Below are positions 38,628 through 44,309 of a stretch of DNA of 64,000 nt, piece after piece (the stretch's first letter is position 1; each line of letters starts with the position of its first letter). A model generated the notes under the pieces. The model saw nothing but the letters and a program-made list of their open reading frames with translations. It did not search any database and was not told where the DNA came from. A program made the position numbers and the translations under genes. The stretch comes from Shigella phage Sf20. Where the stretch lies: sequence record MF327006; one strand, written 5' to 3'.

Positions 38628-40871
38628 TTACAGCTTGCAAGATGAGCACTCGCTAGCGTCTTCCGTACCATCTGCACCGTCGCGAACGTTCGCATAATAC
38701 AGGGTTTTCAGACCGTAATATTGAGCAAACAACATATCATCTAACACATCAGCAATATCGACTTTACCAGTCTTATAAGTGCTTGGATCGTATGATGTAT
38801 TGGAACTAATCGCCTGATCCACAAACTTCTGCATGATCGCTGCCAGTGTCAGATAGGGCTTGTTACCTTTCTTGATCAGTGTCCAAAGCAGGTCAATAAC
38901 ATCAGCATTATTCTCTACGTTCGGAATAACCTGATTAAATTGCCCTTCTTTCGATCCTTTAACCGATACAATCCCGCGAGGCGGTTCAATACCGTTTGTG
39001 CTGTTAGATACCTGAGAAGACGACTCACAAGGCATCAGAGCCGAAAGCGTACTATTACGAATGCCATATTTTTTCAGGTCTTCGCGCAGTTCTTCCCAAT
39101 CCATCTCATACACAGGATCAACCAGTTCATCTACTGTCTTTTTGTACCAGTCGATAGGCAGTTCACCGCGTCCATAACGTGTTTCGTGCATCAGTTCGCA
39201 AGCACCCTTCTCTTTAGCCAGTTGCACACTAGCCTTAATCAGAGCATATTGCAAGCGTTCAAACGTTTTATGCGTAAACTCGTTAGCGTCTTCATATGTG
39301 AAGAAATTATCCGCTAGATATGACGCAAAGTTAGTCACACCAACACCCAGAGAGCGACGTTTTTTGGCTGTCAGAGCTTGTTCTACAGGATAATCCTGAT
39401 AATCTAACAGGTTGTCAAGTGCACGCACCATAACCATAGCAATGCGTTCTACTTCTTCCATGTTTTCGATATCGAAATTACCTAAAACATATGCTGCCAA
39501 AGTACATAGGCTAATTTCTGAATCATCACGACCCATCGGTTTTGTAGGCAGAGCAATTTCACAACACAGGTTAGATTGTTTAATCGGTGCTACATTACGA
39601 ATAAACGCCCCGTGATTGTTCATGTTGTCTGTGAACGTTGGGTAGATTCGACCAGTGTTAAAACGTTCAATTGCCACCGCTAAAAACAGGTCTTCGGCTT
39701 TAACACGAGTTTTACGAACACTCGGATCTTTTTCCAGTTTTTCGTAAAGCTGGCGGAAACCTTCCTCATCTCGGAAGTATAGATCCCACAACAAGCCACC
39801 TGCAATATCTGGACTAAACAGAGTAATGTAATCCCGTTTAAGGAATCGCTCTACCATCAGGTTATTAATCTGTACGCCGTAGTCAAGATGGCGAATGCGG
39901 TTATCTTCCACGCCCTTATTGTTCTTTAACACAATCAGACTTTCAAACTCTAAATGCCACATTGGGTAATAGAGTGTCGCTGCCCCGCCACGAATACCGC
40001 CTTGTGAGCATGACTTAACGGCAGTCTGAAAATGTTTCCAGAATGGGATAACGCCAGTATGACGAACTTCACCATGCCCGATCTTAGATCCTTCCGCGCG
40101 AATCATGCCAGCGTTGATACCGATACCAGCACGCTTGCTAATATACTTAATGATTGCATTTGCGGTTTCATTAATACCCTGCAATGAGTCATCACTTTCA
40201 ATCACCACACACGAACTAAATTGGCGTGTTGGAGTACGCACACCCGCCATAATCGGAGTAGGCAGAGAGATTTGCTTATTCGCAACAGCATTATAAAAAT
40301 CAATCACATGTTCAAGTCGATTTTCTGTCTCTTCTTGATGCAAGCACATACCGATCAGCATATACGCAAATTGCGGTGTTTCAATGATTTTCTTAGTGCT
40401 GCGATCCTGAACAAGATATTTCTCTTTTAACTGCATCGCACCAGCATAGGTCATTTTAAAATCAAGTTTATGGTCGATGAATTTCTCCAGATATTCCACT
40501 TCTTCACGGGAATACTTTTGCAGAATTTCGCGATCATATTTTCCGGTTGCAATATTACGCTCAATATGGCTGTAAAAATCAATCGGTTGGAATTGACCGT
40601 ATACTGATTTGCGAAGCGCGAACATTGCAAGGTTACTTGCTACATATTGATAATCGGGTGTTTCTACAGTGATGTTATCTGCGGCGACCTTAATCAATAC
40701 TTTCTGGATATCATTGGTAGACATACCTTCTGTCAGAAGTGGTTCAACCATATCAAACAATTCATATGGATCAACGTTATGACCTTCGGCTGCCGCTTCC
40801 AGAATTTTCATCACTTTTTCTTTTTCAAACGGAACAGTCAGACCGGAAGACTTAACAACATTTTTAATCAT
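38628..40871 (-). CDS. nrdA: ribonucleotide reductase large subunit
   Basis: 747 aa; N-terminal ATP-cone, catalytic NLCCEI and C-terminal Cys pair CSSC. Confidence 0.9.
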   Translation of the reverse strand: MIKNVVKSSGLTVPFEKEKVMKILEAAAEGHNVDPYELFDMVEPLLTEGMSTNDIQKVLIKVAADNITVETPDYQYVASNLAMFALRKSVYGQFQPIDFYSHIERNIATGKYDREILQKYSREEVEYLEKFIDHKLDFKMTYAGAMQLKEKYLVQDRSTKKIIETPQFAYMLIGMCLHQEETENRLEHVIDFYNAVANKQISLPTPIMAGVRTPTRQFSSCVVIESDDSLQGINETANAIIKYISKRAGIGINAGMIRAEGSKIGHGEVRHTGVIPFWKHFQTAVKSCSQGGIRGGAATLYYPMWHLEFESLIVLKNNKGVEDNRIRHLDYGVQINNLMVERFLKRDYITLFSPDIAGGLLWDLYFRDEEGFRQLYEKLEKDPSVRKTRVKAEDLFLAVAIERFNTGRIYPTFTDNMNNHGAFIRNVAPIKQSNLCCEIALPTKPMGRDDSEISLCTLAAYVLGNFDIENMEEVERIAMVMVRALDNLLDYQDYPVEQALTAKKRRSLGVGVTNFASYLADNFFTYEDANEFTHKTFERLQYALIKASVQLAKEKGACELMHETRYGRGELPIDWYKKTVDELVDPVYEMDWEELREDLKKYGIRNSTLSALMPCESSSQVSNSTNGIEPPRGIVSVKGSKEGQFNQVIPNVENNADVIDLLWTLIKKGNKPYLTLAAIMQKFVDQAISSNTSYDPSTYKTGKVDIADVLDDMLFAQYYGLKTLYYANVRDGADGTEDASECSSCKL

Positions 40872-40940
40872 ATTACCTCACTTCATATTTTAGCAGGAAC
40901 AAGTTTATCCTCCATATTGGGGGCTTTCGCCCCCCTTTGT

Positions 40941-42173
40941 TTATACTGCCATTTGAGCGGTGATTGCTGGATGGCTTTGATAGTTGTGAATTTTAAAGTC
41001 TTTCGGAGTCTTTGTCAATACCTCATCTAAAGATTTAAATTCCGGCAACTCAATTGTTGGTTTATCAAACGGAACACGGCTTAACTGTTCCATAACTTGA
41101 TCAAAGTGGTTTTTGTAAATGTGAGTATCTCCACCAGAGAAAATCAGTTCTCCTACCTCAAGATCACACATTTTCGCTATGATGTGAGTTAACAGCGCAT
41201 AGCTGGCGACGTTAAAGGGCAAGCCCAAAAAGCTATCTACGCTTCTCTGAAACCACATGCAAGATAGTTTACCTTCATTGACATAGAATTGCACGAAAGG
41301 ATGACATACACCTAATACAGCATTATGTGTTCCTTGTACGTTCCATGAGTCAATGATGATACGTCGATCCGTTGGATTGTTTTTAATTTGTTCAATCACG
41401 TTTTGTAACTGGTCTTCCCAAATCTTCGGGCGATAGACATATTCTTCATCGTCTTTAGTGCTCGATGTGTCTACGTCCATACTAGCAAAGATCGTGGTAT
41501 CTGGTGCTAAAATATCCCCACCCAGATAATCACTATCAAGCAGATAACCGAAATAACCATCATCTACCCATTCCTGGAATCCCCACAAGCAATATGCATC
41601 ATTAACAAAATTAGATTGAGTCTTCCAGTGATCGGCTACTAAGAATTGATTATATTCAGAATCAAACTCTTCATAACGCATACCACGCCAGATAGCACAT
41701 AAACGGTCTTCTGTGTCATTGGTTGGCGTAAAGTCTTCTACCCACGGGTGTTTAAATGTATGTGTATATTTGCTCTTAACGCGCTTAATTTTGATTTCAC
41801 CATGTGGATGAATCGGTTTGCGTCGCCACGCCATACCATACATATTGCCGACATTATAACCATTGAATCGCAAAGGATTCTTTTCTTTCATATCAAGACA
41901 GTTGCCGCGCCAAATGTCGAAGGCTTCTTCGTCAAACTTGCCGCGTGTAATTTCTTGTAAGCGACGGCGATCAAGTGATCCCTCCATAAACCATAGCAAC
42001 TCGCCAATTACAGAGGCTGTAGCCATCTTTTTAGTGGTCAGTAAGGGGAAACCCTTGCTTAAGTCAATTCGCATTTCTGCACCGAATTTAGAGAGCGTAC
42101 CTACCCCCGTGCGGTCTTCACGAGGCCAGCCATTATCAAGAACATCACGCAACAGTTTCAAATATTCTTTCAT
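40941..42173 (-). CDS. td: thymidylate synthase with ~100-aa internal insertion
   Basis: DRTGVGTLS, DRRIIIDSWNV, CHPFVQFYV, LPFNVASYALL; extra ~100 aa between WRR and DQLQNVIEQ. Confidence 0.85.
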   Translation of the reverse strand: MKEYLKLLRDVLDNGWPREDRTGVGTLSKFGAEMRIDLSKGFPLLTTKKMATASVIGELLWFMEGSLDRRRLQEITRGKFDEEAFDIWRGNCLDMKEKNPLRFNGYNVGNMYGMAWRRKPIHPHGEIKIKRVKSKYTHTFKHPWVEDFTPTNDTEDRLCAIWRGMRYEEFDSEYNQFLVADHWKTQSNFVNDAYCLWGFQEWVDDGYFGYLLDSDYLGGDILAPDTTIFASMDVDTSSTKDDEEYVYRPKIWEDQLQNVIEQIKNNPTDRRIIIDSWNVQGTHNAVLGVCHPFVQFYVNEGKLSCMWFQRSVDSFLGLPFNVASYALLTHIIAKMCDLEVGELIFSGGDTHIYKNHFDQVMEQLSRVPFDKPTIELPEFKSLDEVLTKTPKDFKIHNYQSHPAITAQMAV

Positions 42174-42408
42174 CCCACTTCCCCTTTTTCTTTGCTTTCT
42201 TACGCAGTTTTGCTACTGTCTCGCTAATGTTAATAAAAATATCGTCTGGACCGAATACAGTAACAGGTCTTGATATATCGCTATTTTCTTGTACAGGAAA
42301 CCATGACGCTTTCGATTCATCATAGAGATATTGCAACCCGTAAAGATCTTCTGCTACTGCGTAGTTTTCATGGGTTGCCGACCATAATCGAATAATATTG
42401 ATTTTCAT
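42145..42408 (-). CDS. hypothetical protein (87 aa)
   Basis: ORF between frd and td. Confidence 0.4.
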   Translation of the reverse strand: MKINIIRLWSATHENYAVAEDLYGLQYLYDESKASWFPVQENSDISRPVTVFGPDDIFINISETVAKLRKKAKKKGKWDERIFETVA

Positions 42409-42501
42409 TATTGTTCCCGTCCGCAGTGTAAACACCGACTACCAGCAAACATCAAAGATTCACCACAATGTTTGCACTCATAATCTGTCAGAATTTTCAT
42501 G

Positions 42502-43071
42502 TTACGCCTTCTTACGTTCTAAAATTTGTTCGCTGATCAGGTAATCATCAAGGAAGTAATTATGTTCTTCTTTTGTTGCAAAGTCAAAATATAATTCCTG
42601 AATCATTTCCTTAGAGATACCAACATCATATTCGAACGGATCATTAATTCCTGCTCGTTGAACATACGTTAACACAATACGGTCCGCAAAGTCAACCGCT
42701 TTTTCAATCAGGGAAGGTCCGCCGATAACACTTACCAAACCTTGCGTTTTCTCTAGGGCTTTTAACAGATCCTTCAATTCAATTCCAGTATACACATCAG
42801 GTTGGTCGCCGTTTTTAGCTTTCGGTTCTGGCTTGTTGGTATCGGTGCTAACAACCACATTCAAACGTCCCCAAAGTGCTTTAGGCAGACTTTCAAAGGT
42901 ATTGCGTCCCATTACTACCGCAGAAAAATCAACCTCGCCAATAGTGCGCATTTTAAAGTTTTCCATGTCCTTTTTGATTGGACGCCCCCACGGTAAACCG
43001 CCTTTAAAACCAAAAGCCCAATTTTCATCTGACATTTTAGTGTCACCAATCGCAAATACACATTGAATCAT
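42502..43071 (-). CDS. frd: dihydrofolate reductase
   Basis: GGLPWGRP motif and size 189 aa; synteny frd-td. Confidence 0.85.
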   Translation of the reverse strand: MIQCVFAIGDTKMSDENWAFGFKGGLPWGRPIKKDMENFKMRTIGEVDFSAVVMGRNTFESLPKALWGRLNVVVSTDTNKPEPKAKNGDQPDVYTGIELKDLLKALEKTQGLVSVIGGPSLIEKAVDFADRIVLTYVQRAGINDPFEYDVGISKEMIQELYFDFATKEEHNYFLDDYLISEQILERKKA

Positions 43072-43463: not shown

Positions 43464-44309
43464 TTACGCTGTCAACTCTTTTTCAAAAGATTTTACGATA
43501 TACATTAAATTTCTAATTTCGGACGGTGGGATTGTCTCTGTCCACCCGTCCGGCATAACTTTTTGCGATACGTGGCGTGTTTTATTACTAAGTTTTTGTC
43601 GAACAATACCCTCTAATTTTAGGGGTATGTTTCCATCTTTAGTTGTTAACGTATGGAATATAAAGTGACGAACGGAAGACACGCTGGATTGCTGTTTCAT
43701 CCTTTCCTCGGCTTTTTTGTTAGTGATTCCGAACTTATACCCGACAATACAACCCCAATTATCAACCAGTTTTTGTATATAAAAGGTTCCTGGTTTTCTT
43801 TTATCATAACCTCCTTTTTGAGTGGGACATTTCGGACACTGCATATCATCTAAAGATGCGACATATTTGCCATGAACGCAGCAATCCATACTTAGATTCT
43901 TTTCTCTTGCATTAATATACCCATTAATAAATCCATTGGATTTTACTTTTTCATTATGAGAACAAAATTCATCAATTCGTATATTTGCTGATATAACATT
44001 TTTTCTTCTCATTCGTTCCATCCAACATTCTTGACAACCACCTCCCCCATTTTTAAGTATATCGATAGTGGTTAATTTTTGCTTGTGGTTTGGATTTAAT
44101 CCACAAGCAATTTTAATTTTAGATCGTACACCAGACCACTCATAGAATCCCAAATATATCATATCTCCGCTTTTTATTTTTGGCGAATTTAATGCTTCAT
44201 TTTCAATCTCAATTGGAGATTTTGAATTATAGTAATGGATATATTCTATATCTTTAGCAAATCTGGTGTTCATTTTGTCCTCCGTTGTTTCTATGCTTGC
44301 ATTATACAT
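43464..44309 (-). CDS. T5orf172/GIY-YIG-like domain protein with Cys-rich N-terminal region
   Basis: C-terminal GTFYIQKL...VGYKFGITNKKAEERMK...GWTETIPP resembles T5orf172 (MUG113) domain; N-terminal CQEC and CPKC pairs. Confidence 0.45.
   Translation of the reverse strand: MYNASIETTEDKMNTRFAKDIEYIHYYNSKSPIEIENEALNSPKIKSGDMIYLGFYEWSGVRSKIKIACGLNPNHKQKLTTIDILKNGGGGCQECWMERMRRKNVISANIRIDEFCSHNEKVKSNGFINGYINAREKNLSMDCCVHGKYVASLDDMQCPKCPTQKGGYDKRKPGTFYIQKLVDNWGCIVGYKFGITNKKAEERMKQQSSVSSVRHFIFHTLTTKDGNIPLKLEGIVRQKLSNKTRHVSQKVMPDGWTETIPPSEIRNLMYIVKSFEKELTA

Follow-up and report, generated by a model that had tools for sequence, protein, structure and literature searches.

A probable decayed homing-endonuclease-like insert, translated in frame within the thymidylate synthase of Shigella phage Sf20

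Introduction

Homing endonuclease genes are, to our knowledge, thought to survive in essential genes only when they come with a self-splicing intron or intein, or else to reside between genes. In phage T4, the td gene, which encodes thymidylate synthase (TS), carries an intron with I-TevI, a homing endonuclease that exploits a conserved gene of nucleotide metabolism. A DNA methylase of an actinobacteriophage contains the ShiLan domain, a homing insertion that is not spliced (Arsenault, Gosselin & Gogarten, Genes 2025, PMC11855218). Here, we analyzed the td gene of Shigella phage Sf20 in a stretch of 64,000 nucleotides (sequence record MF327006; hereafter the window), whose product carries one large block of extra residues inside TS. 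An earlier note on this DNA had described ~100 extra residues between the WRR and DQL motifs of an uninterrupted td open reading frame (ORF), and had proposed a novel inserted domain on the TS surface. We show that the insert is a truncated homologue of a large phage protein family, and we consider it likely that it is the decayed remnant of a homing-endonuclease-like gene, which lies in frame in a surface loop of TS and is never spliced.

Results

The td gene of Sf20 is an uninterrupted ORF of 410 amino acids (aa) at 40941..42173 on the minus strand, stop codon included; all td features below lie on this strand. Its identity is 100% with the td genes of phages Whisky and MIZ6 and 99.5% with that of RB49, and the source of the window is an RB49-like T4-type phage of the genus Krischvirus. 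The product matched the ThyA-type TS profile of Pfam (PF00303) with an expect value (E) of 1.1e-84, in two separate stretches, and ThyA in the PDB with an E of 1e-68; residues 1-82 and 110-264 of E. coli ThyA align to residues 1-82 and 254-410 of Sf20 Td. In an alignment of 31 sequences (A1), the catalytic and ligand-binding residues (R21, E58, W88, Y112, R270/R271, C290, R310, D313, N321, H351 and Y353) were all present, invariant and collinear. With the profile match, the catalytic Cys and the residues that bind deoxyuridylate and folate, the host protein belongs to the ThyA family, and the ORF list and the alignment confirm the continuous frame and collinear core motifs that had been reported for it.

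The N-terminal part of the TS core (aa 1-118; 41820..42173) ends in GNMYGMAWRR and aligns to E. coli ThyA from 1-82 onward. The C-terminal part (aa 254-410; 40944..41414), which contains the catalytic Cys290, aligns to E. coli ThyA 110-264 at 165 bits, and its ratio of nonsynonymous to synonymous substitution rates (dN/dS, omega) is 0-0.06. Between the two parts lies the insert of 135 aa (aa 119-253; 41415..41819), which forms a single block in alignments A1 and A3, where TS of normal length have 4-10 residues (P0027 has 27). The earlier note was therefore right that one block, rather than scattered small indels, separates WRR from DQL, but the size of the insert is ~125-135 aa and not ~100. 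Small indels in other places account for another ~18 residues that E. coli ThyA does not have. The GC (guanine plus cytosine) content, 40.3% in the insert and 40.3% in the whole window, is uninformative about a foreign origin.

AlphaFold2 modeled the whole Td with a pLDDT (predicted local distance difference test score) of 93.5 and a predicted template modeling score of 0.91, and the insert alone had a pLDDT of 93.9. The insert is predicted to be a compact domain on a long two-stranded beta-ribbon stalk (strands 118-130 and 245-254), which projects from the TS body. The ascending strand of the stalk (aa 119-130, KPIHPHGEIKIK; 41784..41819) corresponds to the modeled strand 118-130 with a pLDDT of ~90, and a P.PHG motif is kept in most insert-bearing TS in the alignment of long TS. 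The descending strand (aa 245-253, YVYRPKIWE; 41415..41441; modeled strand 245-254) runs into the DQL helix, and insert-bearing TS conserve its (V/Y)RPxI motif. Between the strands, the globular central block (aa 131-244; 41442..41783) is delimited by the model and by invariant columns that are common to free-standing proteins. It has one helix (153-170), which is followed by short helices (181-204) and then by a beta-hairpin (210-213/228-231), and keeps W162, M165, V179, W183, N188, F189, D213 and D215. Within the block, the codon alignment of 7 Krischvirus td genes revealed an in-frame indel of 4 codons, SEYN (aa 172-175; 41649..41660), which is polymorphic among Krischvirus phages and lies in the loop of the eroded R-C-Y region of the family described below, where the pLDDT falls to 73-76. 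The conservation table shows that LDSD (aa 212-215; 41529..41540) is a degenerate form of an L-D-K-D motif that is near-invariant in this family.

Searched alone, the Sf20 insert matched no family in Pfam or NCBIfam, and its match in PHROG was marginal (phrog_2081, E of 0.2). A tblastn search with the insert against phages returned 58 Krischvirus copies, one in each of 58/58 Krischvirus-type records, and TS genes of two other phage groups, namely the jumbo phage UE-S1 (517-aa TS, E of 2e-12) and the Vibrio phages D69 and D148 (477-aa TS, E of 2e-5). The UE-S1 and D69/D148 inserts occupy the identical site and are larger than that of Sf20. The search that the earlier note had proposed, with the insert by itself, thus found relatives, but only the longer TS inserts revealed to which family it belongs. 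The UE-S1 insert matched phrog_2081 (E of 4e-32), phrog_953 (7e-25) and phrog_374 (8e-21), all of which are labeled HNH endonuclease, and its relatives occur in 1,307 phage records. The Sf20 insert scored 131-135 bits against the A3/A4 hidden Markov models. Since it is linked through the intermediate long TS inserts, its direct match having an E of only 0.2, we place the Sf20 insert in the phrog_2081/953/374 module family.

With the full-length protein as the query, a large protein database yielded 25 clusters of long TS (401-613 aa), all of which have one insert, after WRxx and before (V/Y)RPxIxxDQL. The same TS site is occupied in at least 80 TS clusters besides that of Sf20. A G[NDE]MY signature occurs in 23 insert-bearing TS (all but P0024/P0025) and in 0/95 normal-length TS. 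Long-form inserts have 240-280 aa in three parts: a beta-rich N-terminal subdomain (consensus G.Y.V.GK...V.KF..TGSY...IKD..PSVEGVGYLG), a central block (W..M..R.Y ... VC.RW.NF.NF ... LWGFQE.VD ... LDKDY.G..YSP.TC.F...N) and a C-terminal subdomain that is NUMOD-like and putatively DNA-binding (LNGGG.GFK.Y..G..F.S...L...RG). Short forms, with Sf20 among them, consist of the ribbon and the central block only. Free-standing relatives have 174-224 aa, and their full length aligns with the N-terminal subdomain plus the central block.

The A3 profile of TS inserts matched 13,139 cluster representatives (E<=1e-3) among 1.84 billion proteins. Among the best 146 new ones of these matches, 58 are hosted by TS, and the TS profile is broken at the same position (~118-127 of 281) every time; another 58 are free-standing proteins of up to 310 aa in which the module spans nearly the whole protein; and 30 are other long proteins, mostly with two tandem modules. 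In long non-TS proteins, the module is accompanied by AP2 and I-HmuI NUMOD-like domains, which are DNA-binding modules of homing endonucleases. No Pfam HNH match was obtained for the Sf20 insert, the long inserts or the free-standing members. A canonical HNH nuclease has a general-base His at the end of beta1 and an Asn/His metal ligand on the next helix, whereas the consensus of the family is L-D-K-D, Sf20 has L-D-S-D, and N182 of the family is D in Sf20. Foldseek against the PDB and a profile search against PDB sequences found no solved relative, and no family or entry in Pfam, NCBIfam or the PDB covers the module, although the family exceeds 13,000 clusters. The novelty proposed in the earlier note therefore holds in part: a folded domain projects from TS in the model, but it is no orphan, and inserts of this kind are common (at least 80 other TS clusters) without being known, since they have no Pfam, NCBIfam or PDB family and we found no paper on them.

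Several further members of the family were seen in these searches. The D69 coding sequence (L002:2138-3571; also in D148) that is annotated 'HNH endonuclease' is the 477-aa TS-like protein with the insert. Its TS core is unusually diverged (38% identity; DRTG changed to TRSG and RR to RY), and this protein may not act as a conventional dTMP (deoxythymidylate) synthase. Most of the 30 long non-TS proteins have two tandem modules per chain (P0125, P0129-P0132, P0139, P0153 and others), which suggests that the module normally acts as a pair. The long insert also matched a region of Tenacibaculum phage PTm5 (H220) annotated 'thymidylate synthase and pyrimidine hydroxymethylase' and a region of Vibrio phage 193E37-1 (H216) annotated 'putative tRNA nucleotidyltransferase', which may be further host genes that bear or adjoin the module. 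In 8/58 TS-hosted representatives (P0136, P0138, P0179, P0204, P0219, P0231, P0255 and P0264), there is a second gap of ~15-50 residues at TS profile position ~173, which suggests that phage TS has another hotspot for insertions there.

Members of this family differ by presence and absence at the TS site. P0024 (552 aa) shares 89% identity in its TS core with the insert-less P0029 (276 aa), and their contigs (L014 and L016, respectively) are syntenic, in the order ORF-ORF-dihydrofolate reductase-TS, with ~79% DNA identity on both flanks. At the junction of WRxW and xDQL, L014 has 853 nt in place of 25 nt in L016, an in-frame net gain of 276 codons. In addition, the identities of the central block and of the TS core are discordant. 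Among long forms, the block is often the more alike of the two, with 0.73 vs 0.55 for P0015-P0016, 0.71 vs 0.49 for P0016-UE-S1 and 0.53 vs 0.35 for D69-UE-S1, and the reverse pattern, 0.40 for the block vs 0.72 for the core, for P0021-UE-S1; therefore, the insert and its host have different histories. Free-standing members sit between primase and polymerase, between terminase and portal, and beside an intein-containing polymerase, positions that are typical of homing endonucleases. The near-invariant family positions are conserved equally strongly in TS-hosted long forms and in free-standing members, which suggests that both are under the same functional constraint. From such comparisons, the long-form td insert behaves as a site-specific mobile element. 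Within Krischvirus, no presence/absence polymorphism was seen in the 58/58 records, in which the insert is fixed. Another position typical of homing endonucleases is occupied in Yersinia phage fPS-85 by a free-standing member (g045; L011:1507-2040), which lies between two ORFs annotated 'Phage DNA packaging' and appears to split the terminase gene.

The Krischvirus copy has decayed relative to these forms. Both flanking subdomains of the long form are missing from the Sf20 insert, and so is, in its model, a helix that long forms have after the hairpin. Of the 42 family positions that are conserved at >=60% in 146 full-length members, the Sf20 insert keeps 17, chiefly of the hydrophobic core (W105, W131, V127, F137, M108, L159, F176 and W150, in family numbering as below), and also D140, D160, D162 and T173. 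Near-invariant polar residues are replaced (R111E, C112E, Y113F, K161S, Y169L, S170A, C174T and N182D), and the family motifs R-C-Y, D-K-D, Y-S, T-C and N read E-E-F, D-S-D, L-A, T-T and D; D160, K161 and D162 are conserved at 98-99% in the full-length members. Full-length modules are basic, with a median net charge of +7 to +8 and an isoelectric point (pI) of 9, while the Sf20 insert has a net charge of -12 and a pI of 4.7, and its central block a net charge of -11 and a pI of 4.05, outside the range of the 146 full-length members (minimum -6). Because the polar residues and the subdomains are gone and the surface is acidic, DNA binding and nuclease activity have likely been lost.

The comparison of related TS points to descent of the Sf20 insert from a long form within T4-like phages. 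By TS features, the nearest long form is P0008 (524 aa), and P0006 (401 aa) is a more distant short form; both are in a frd-td-nrdA-nrdB arrangement (contigs L017 and L018), in which NrdA is 61% and 74% identical to that of Sf20. The TS core of the short forms P0009/P0013 is 72% identical to that of the long-form UE-S1 and 53% identical to that of Sf20. Since this core is nearer to UE-S1 than to Sf20, short forms are polyphyletic, and reduction to the ribbon plus the central block occurred at least 2 times. Among the 7 Krischvirus td genes, dN/dS was 0.1-0.5 (~0.2) in the insert and 0-0.08 in the TS core, and by this measure the amino acid sequence of the insert is under purifying selection.

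Taken together, the homology, the common site, the presence/absence polymorphism, the decay pattern, the purifying selection and the confident fold are the data on which our interpretation rests, and the Sf20 insert is probably a fixed, folded, nuclease-dead relic. The ancestor would have been an active endonuclease, the relic itself presumably has no nuclease or DNA-binding activity, and it would persist mainly since only fold-preserving in-frame deletions are tolerated in an important enzyme. Some observations weigh against this interpretation. No published nuclease activity was found for any member of the module family, in which 'HNH' is a PHROG annotation; D160 and D162 are still present in the Sf20 insert; and an omega of ~0.2, genus-wide fixation and the directional acidic shift would fit a new function as well.

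Such a new function defines the most serious alternative, which we regard as unlikely but worth keeping in mind, in which the relic derives from a homing-endonuclease-like insert and now has a selected role in Krischvirus; for example, its acidic surface could dock Td to partners in deoxynucleoside triphosphate (dNTP) synthesis or replication, or could mimic DNA. Fixation in 58/58 genomes, an insert omega that is clearly below 1, the confident predicted fold and the convergence of at least 2 independent long-to-short reductions on ribbon plus central block agree with exaptation, and the charge outside the range of 146 full-length relatives suggests directional change. However, the omega of the insert is ~10x that of the TS core, within the insert an in-frame indel continues to segregate, and the other short forms (P0009 +5, P0013 +6, P0005 -2) are not acidic and share no common derived property. 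The constraint is explained just as well if the insert has to remain folded within an important enzyme. It is improbable that the 135-aa insert is still an active element that binds or nicks DNA site-specifically and thereby drives td homing or excludes competing phages. D160, D162, T173 and the hydrophobic core are kept and the family behaves as mobile, but the N-terminal and the NUMOD-like C-terminal subdomains are gone, as are six near-invariant polar residues, the net charge is -12, and presence/absence polymorphism was not seen within Krischvirus.

Splicing of the insert was considered as well. The earlier note had argued that it is neither a T4-style group I intron nor bounded by intein residues, and both points were borne out. 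There were 0 matches to Rfam within 40500-42600 at E<=1, so no group I intron was detected there, and an intron of the T4 td type was ruled out by this result together with a frame that is continuous in >80 diverged homologues and an omega below 1. An intein was ruled out as well, since Pfam showed no Hint or intein domain in Sf20 Td or its insert, the junctions (WRR followed by KPIH, and KIWE followed by DQL) lack splice residues, and the predicted fold is the wrong one. A hidden out-of-frame endonuclease of the ShiLan style was excluded, because no alternate-frame ORF reaches 80 aa (the largest has 70 aa in the Sf20 insert and 79 aa in that of UE-S1) and the homology resides in the in-frame product. 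Because there is no Rfam match and no Hint domain, omega is 0.1-0.5 and the in-frame product carries the homology, we read the insert as translated and unspliced.

It is consequently very improbable that a non-canonical intein, an in-frame intron or translational bypass removes the insert and leaves a mature Td of normal size. The continuous ORF is what an intein would show, and group I introns are known from phage td genes, as in T4; HNH-containing inteins also exist, according to work cited in 10.1101/2025.01.02.630785. Besides the lack of an Rfam family and a Hint domain, such removal is opposed by the ends of the insert, which begins with K/P and ends with E before D rather than beginning with C/S and ending with HN before C/S/T, by a ribbon plus alpha/beta block that is not Hint-like, and by purifying selection on the amino acids. 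Least probable of all is a lineage-specific elaboration of the TS 'small domain' with no link to a mobile element, like the ~50-aa insert of Lactobacillus casei TS, which lies upstream of the GxVYG motif while the td insert lies after WRxx: TS do accommodate differences in length in this general part of the enzyme (chains of 264-321 aa among PDB matches), but this origin is contradicted by the significant homology, in sequence and in structure, between the insert and free-standing proteins other than TS.

The neighbors of td are those of related phages. Upstream lies frd, which encodes dihydrofolate reductase (42502..43071, minus strand; annotated frd in RB49 and Phi1), and downstream lies nrdA (38628..40871, minus strand; in the ORF list and in the RB49 and Phi1 annotation). 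A profile search found no second copy of the module in the 64-kb window. A 281-aa ORF at 43464-44309 (minus strand), ~0.4 kb upstream of frd, matches the 'endonuclease' family phrog_681 (E of 2e-46); it is free-standing and has no relation to the td insert module. A conserved 96-aa ORF at 42145-42435 (minus strand; phrog_16012; RB49ORF236c) shares the first 29 nt of td. The gap between td and nrdA is a 69-nt spacer in Sf20 (40872-40940), and phages SFHK24 and E26 have an extra ORF of ~100 aa there (L007:1616-1805 and L009:1603-1793). In phage JSE (td at L008:347-1570), the C-terminal TS core of td has a dS of 0.8-1.1 and a dN of 0.13 relative to other Krischvirus td, while the N-terminal core and the insert have a dS of only 0.03-0.36; the far greater divergence of the C-terminal core indicates that JSE td is a recombinant mosaic.

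Discussion

We propose that an endonuclease-like gene inserted in frame in the TS surface loop between the WRxx helix and the DQL helix, where it would be translated as a lasting part of the enzyme, with no splicing of RNA or protein. The complete element would be a 240-280-aa unit on a two-stranded ribbon, with a beta-rich N-terminal subdomain, a central block that bears the R-C-Y, L-D-K-D, Y-S, T-C-x-F and N motifs, and a NUMOD-like C-terminal subdomain for DNA binding, and TS would be spared through the geometry of the ribbon stalk and not through splicing. In the RB49-like lineage, in-frame deletions would have stripped both flanking subdomains, putative catalytic and zinc-ligand residues would have been substituted after fixation, and the surface would have turned strongly acidic. 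The ribbon and the hydrophobic core of the central block would remain as a folded knob, and because this knob is held away from the TS body, TS catalysis would be retained. The retained core, an omega of ~0.2 and the convergent minimal form would follow if td tolerates no deletions other than those after which the insert can still fold.

For a homing endonuclease gene in an essential gene, the td inserts suggest another solution, namely in-frame residence as a tolerated surface domain, which has been hinted at so far by the 2025 ShiLan case alone, with its out-of-frame nuclease. Homing-endonuclease-like domains that are in frame and unspliced and share one site in phage TS appear to be an undescribed class. 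Our search of the literature on RB49/Krischvirus td, in-frame homing endonucleases and TS domain insertions found no mention of the td insert, and the RB49 genome record (AY343333) labels the gene simply td, its sequence having been public since then. Tentatively, and with more doubt than confidence, we raise the idea that the td inserts represent an undescribed lifestyle, in which an endonuclease with no ribozyme and no splicing domain is permanently translated in an important enzyme and kept harmless by the ribbon stalk, the TS homodimer may pair two nuclease units, and the Krischvirus insert is the end stage, a nuclease-dead core that is either frozen or recruited as an acidic interaction surface. 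One host enzyme holds the whole series, from full-length and apparently mobile copies through partly deleted copies to a minimal fixed relic. TS offers an excellent structural and enzymological background, and the relic is found in a well-studied genus of E. coli phages, which makes it testable whether a nuclease works inside another enzyme, how selfish insertions decay and whether they can become new protein domains. Our analysis also flags an uncharacterized nuclease-like family of >13,000 clusters that has no Pfam, NCBIfam or PDB entry, and corrects the annotation of TS genes labeled 'HNH endonuclease' or 'hypothetical protein'.

The insert can be compared with several known systems. The minimal HNH restriction endonuclease PacI (PDB 3M7K) has a marginal likeness to it, with no Foldseek match and no sequence similarity, and the Sf20 copy lacks the Tyr and the Cys residues. 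Compared with canonical HNH proteins, the module family has D-K-D in place of the HNH His and no Pfam HNH match, and its nuclease role is by annotation only. Free-standing phage homing endonucleases (T4 mob/seg and I-HmuI-like HNH proteins with NUMOD/AP2) resemble the free-standing relatives, which are likewise small proteins between or inside conserved genes, whereas the td module is embedded in the product of its target gene and translated with it. The T4 td intron shares the host gene, but Sf20 td has no ribozyme, and the endonuclease family differs, being GIY-YIG in T4. The site differs as well, since the T4 intron is in the C-terminal half of td, close to the active site.

Inteins and mini-inteins are similar to the td insert in that they are in frame, occupy a fixed site in a conserved enzyme and have an endonuclease part that decays to a minimal form. 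In contrast, the td insert has neither a Hint domain nor splice-junction residues; it is presumably never excised, and harm would be avoided by its position on a ribbon stalk in a surface loop and not by splicing. The ShiLan domain is also read through in frame with no stops, is neither an intron nor an intein, forms a predicted hairpin-like protrusion that is kept in the host protein and has a sporadic, homing-like distribution (PMC11855218). The two cases differ in host enzyme, site and nuclease family, and the Sf20 copy is decayed and fixed in its genus. The HNH endonuclease of ShiLan is read in another frame, and what is translated in frame is only a loop, whereas td yields the endonuclease-like module itself as the in-frame product.

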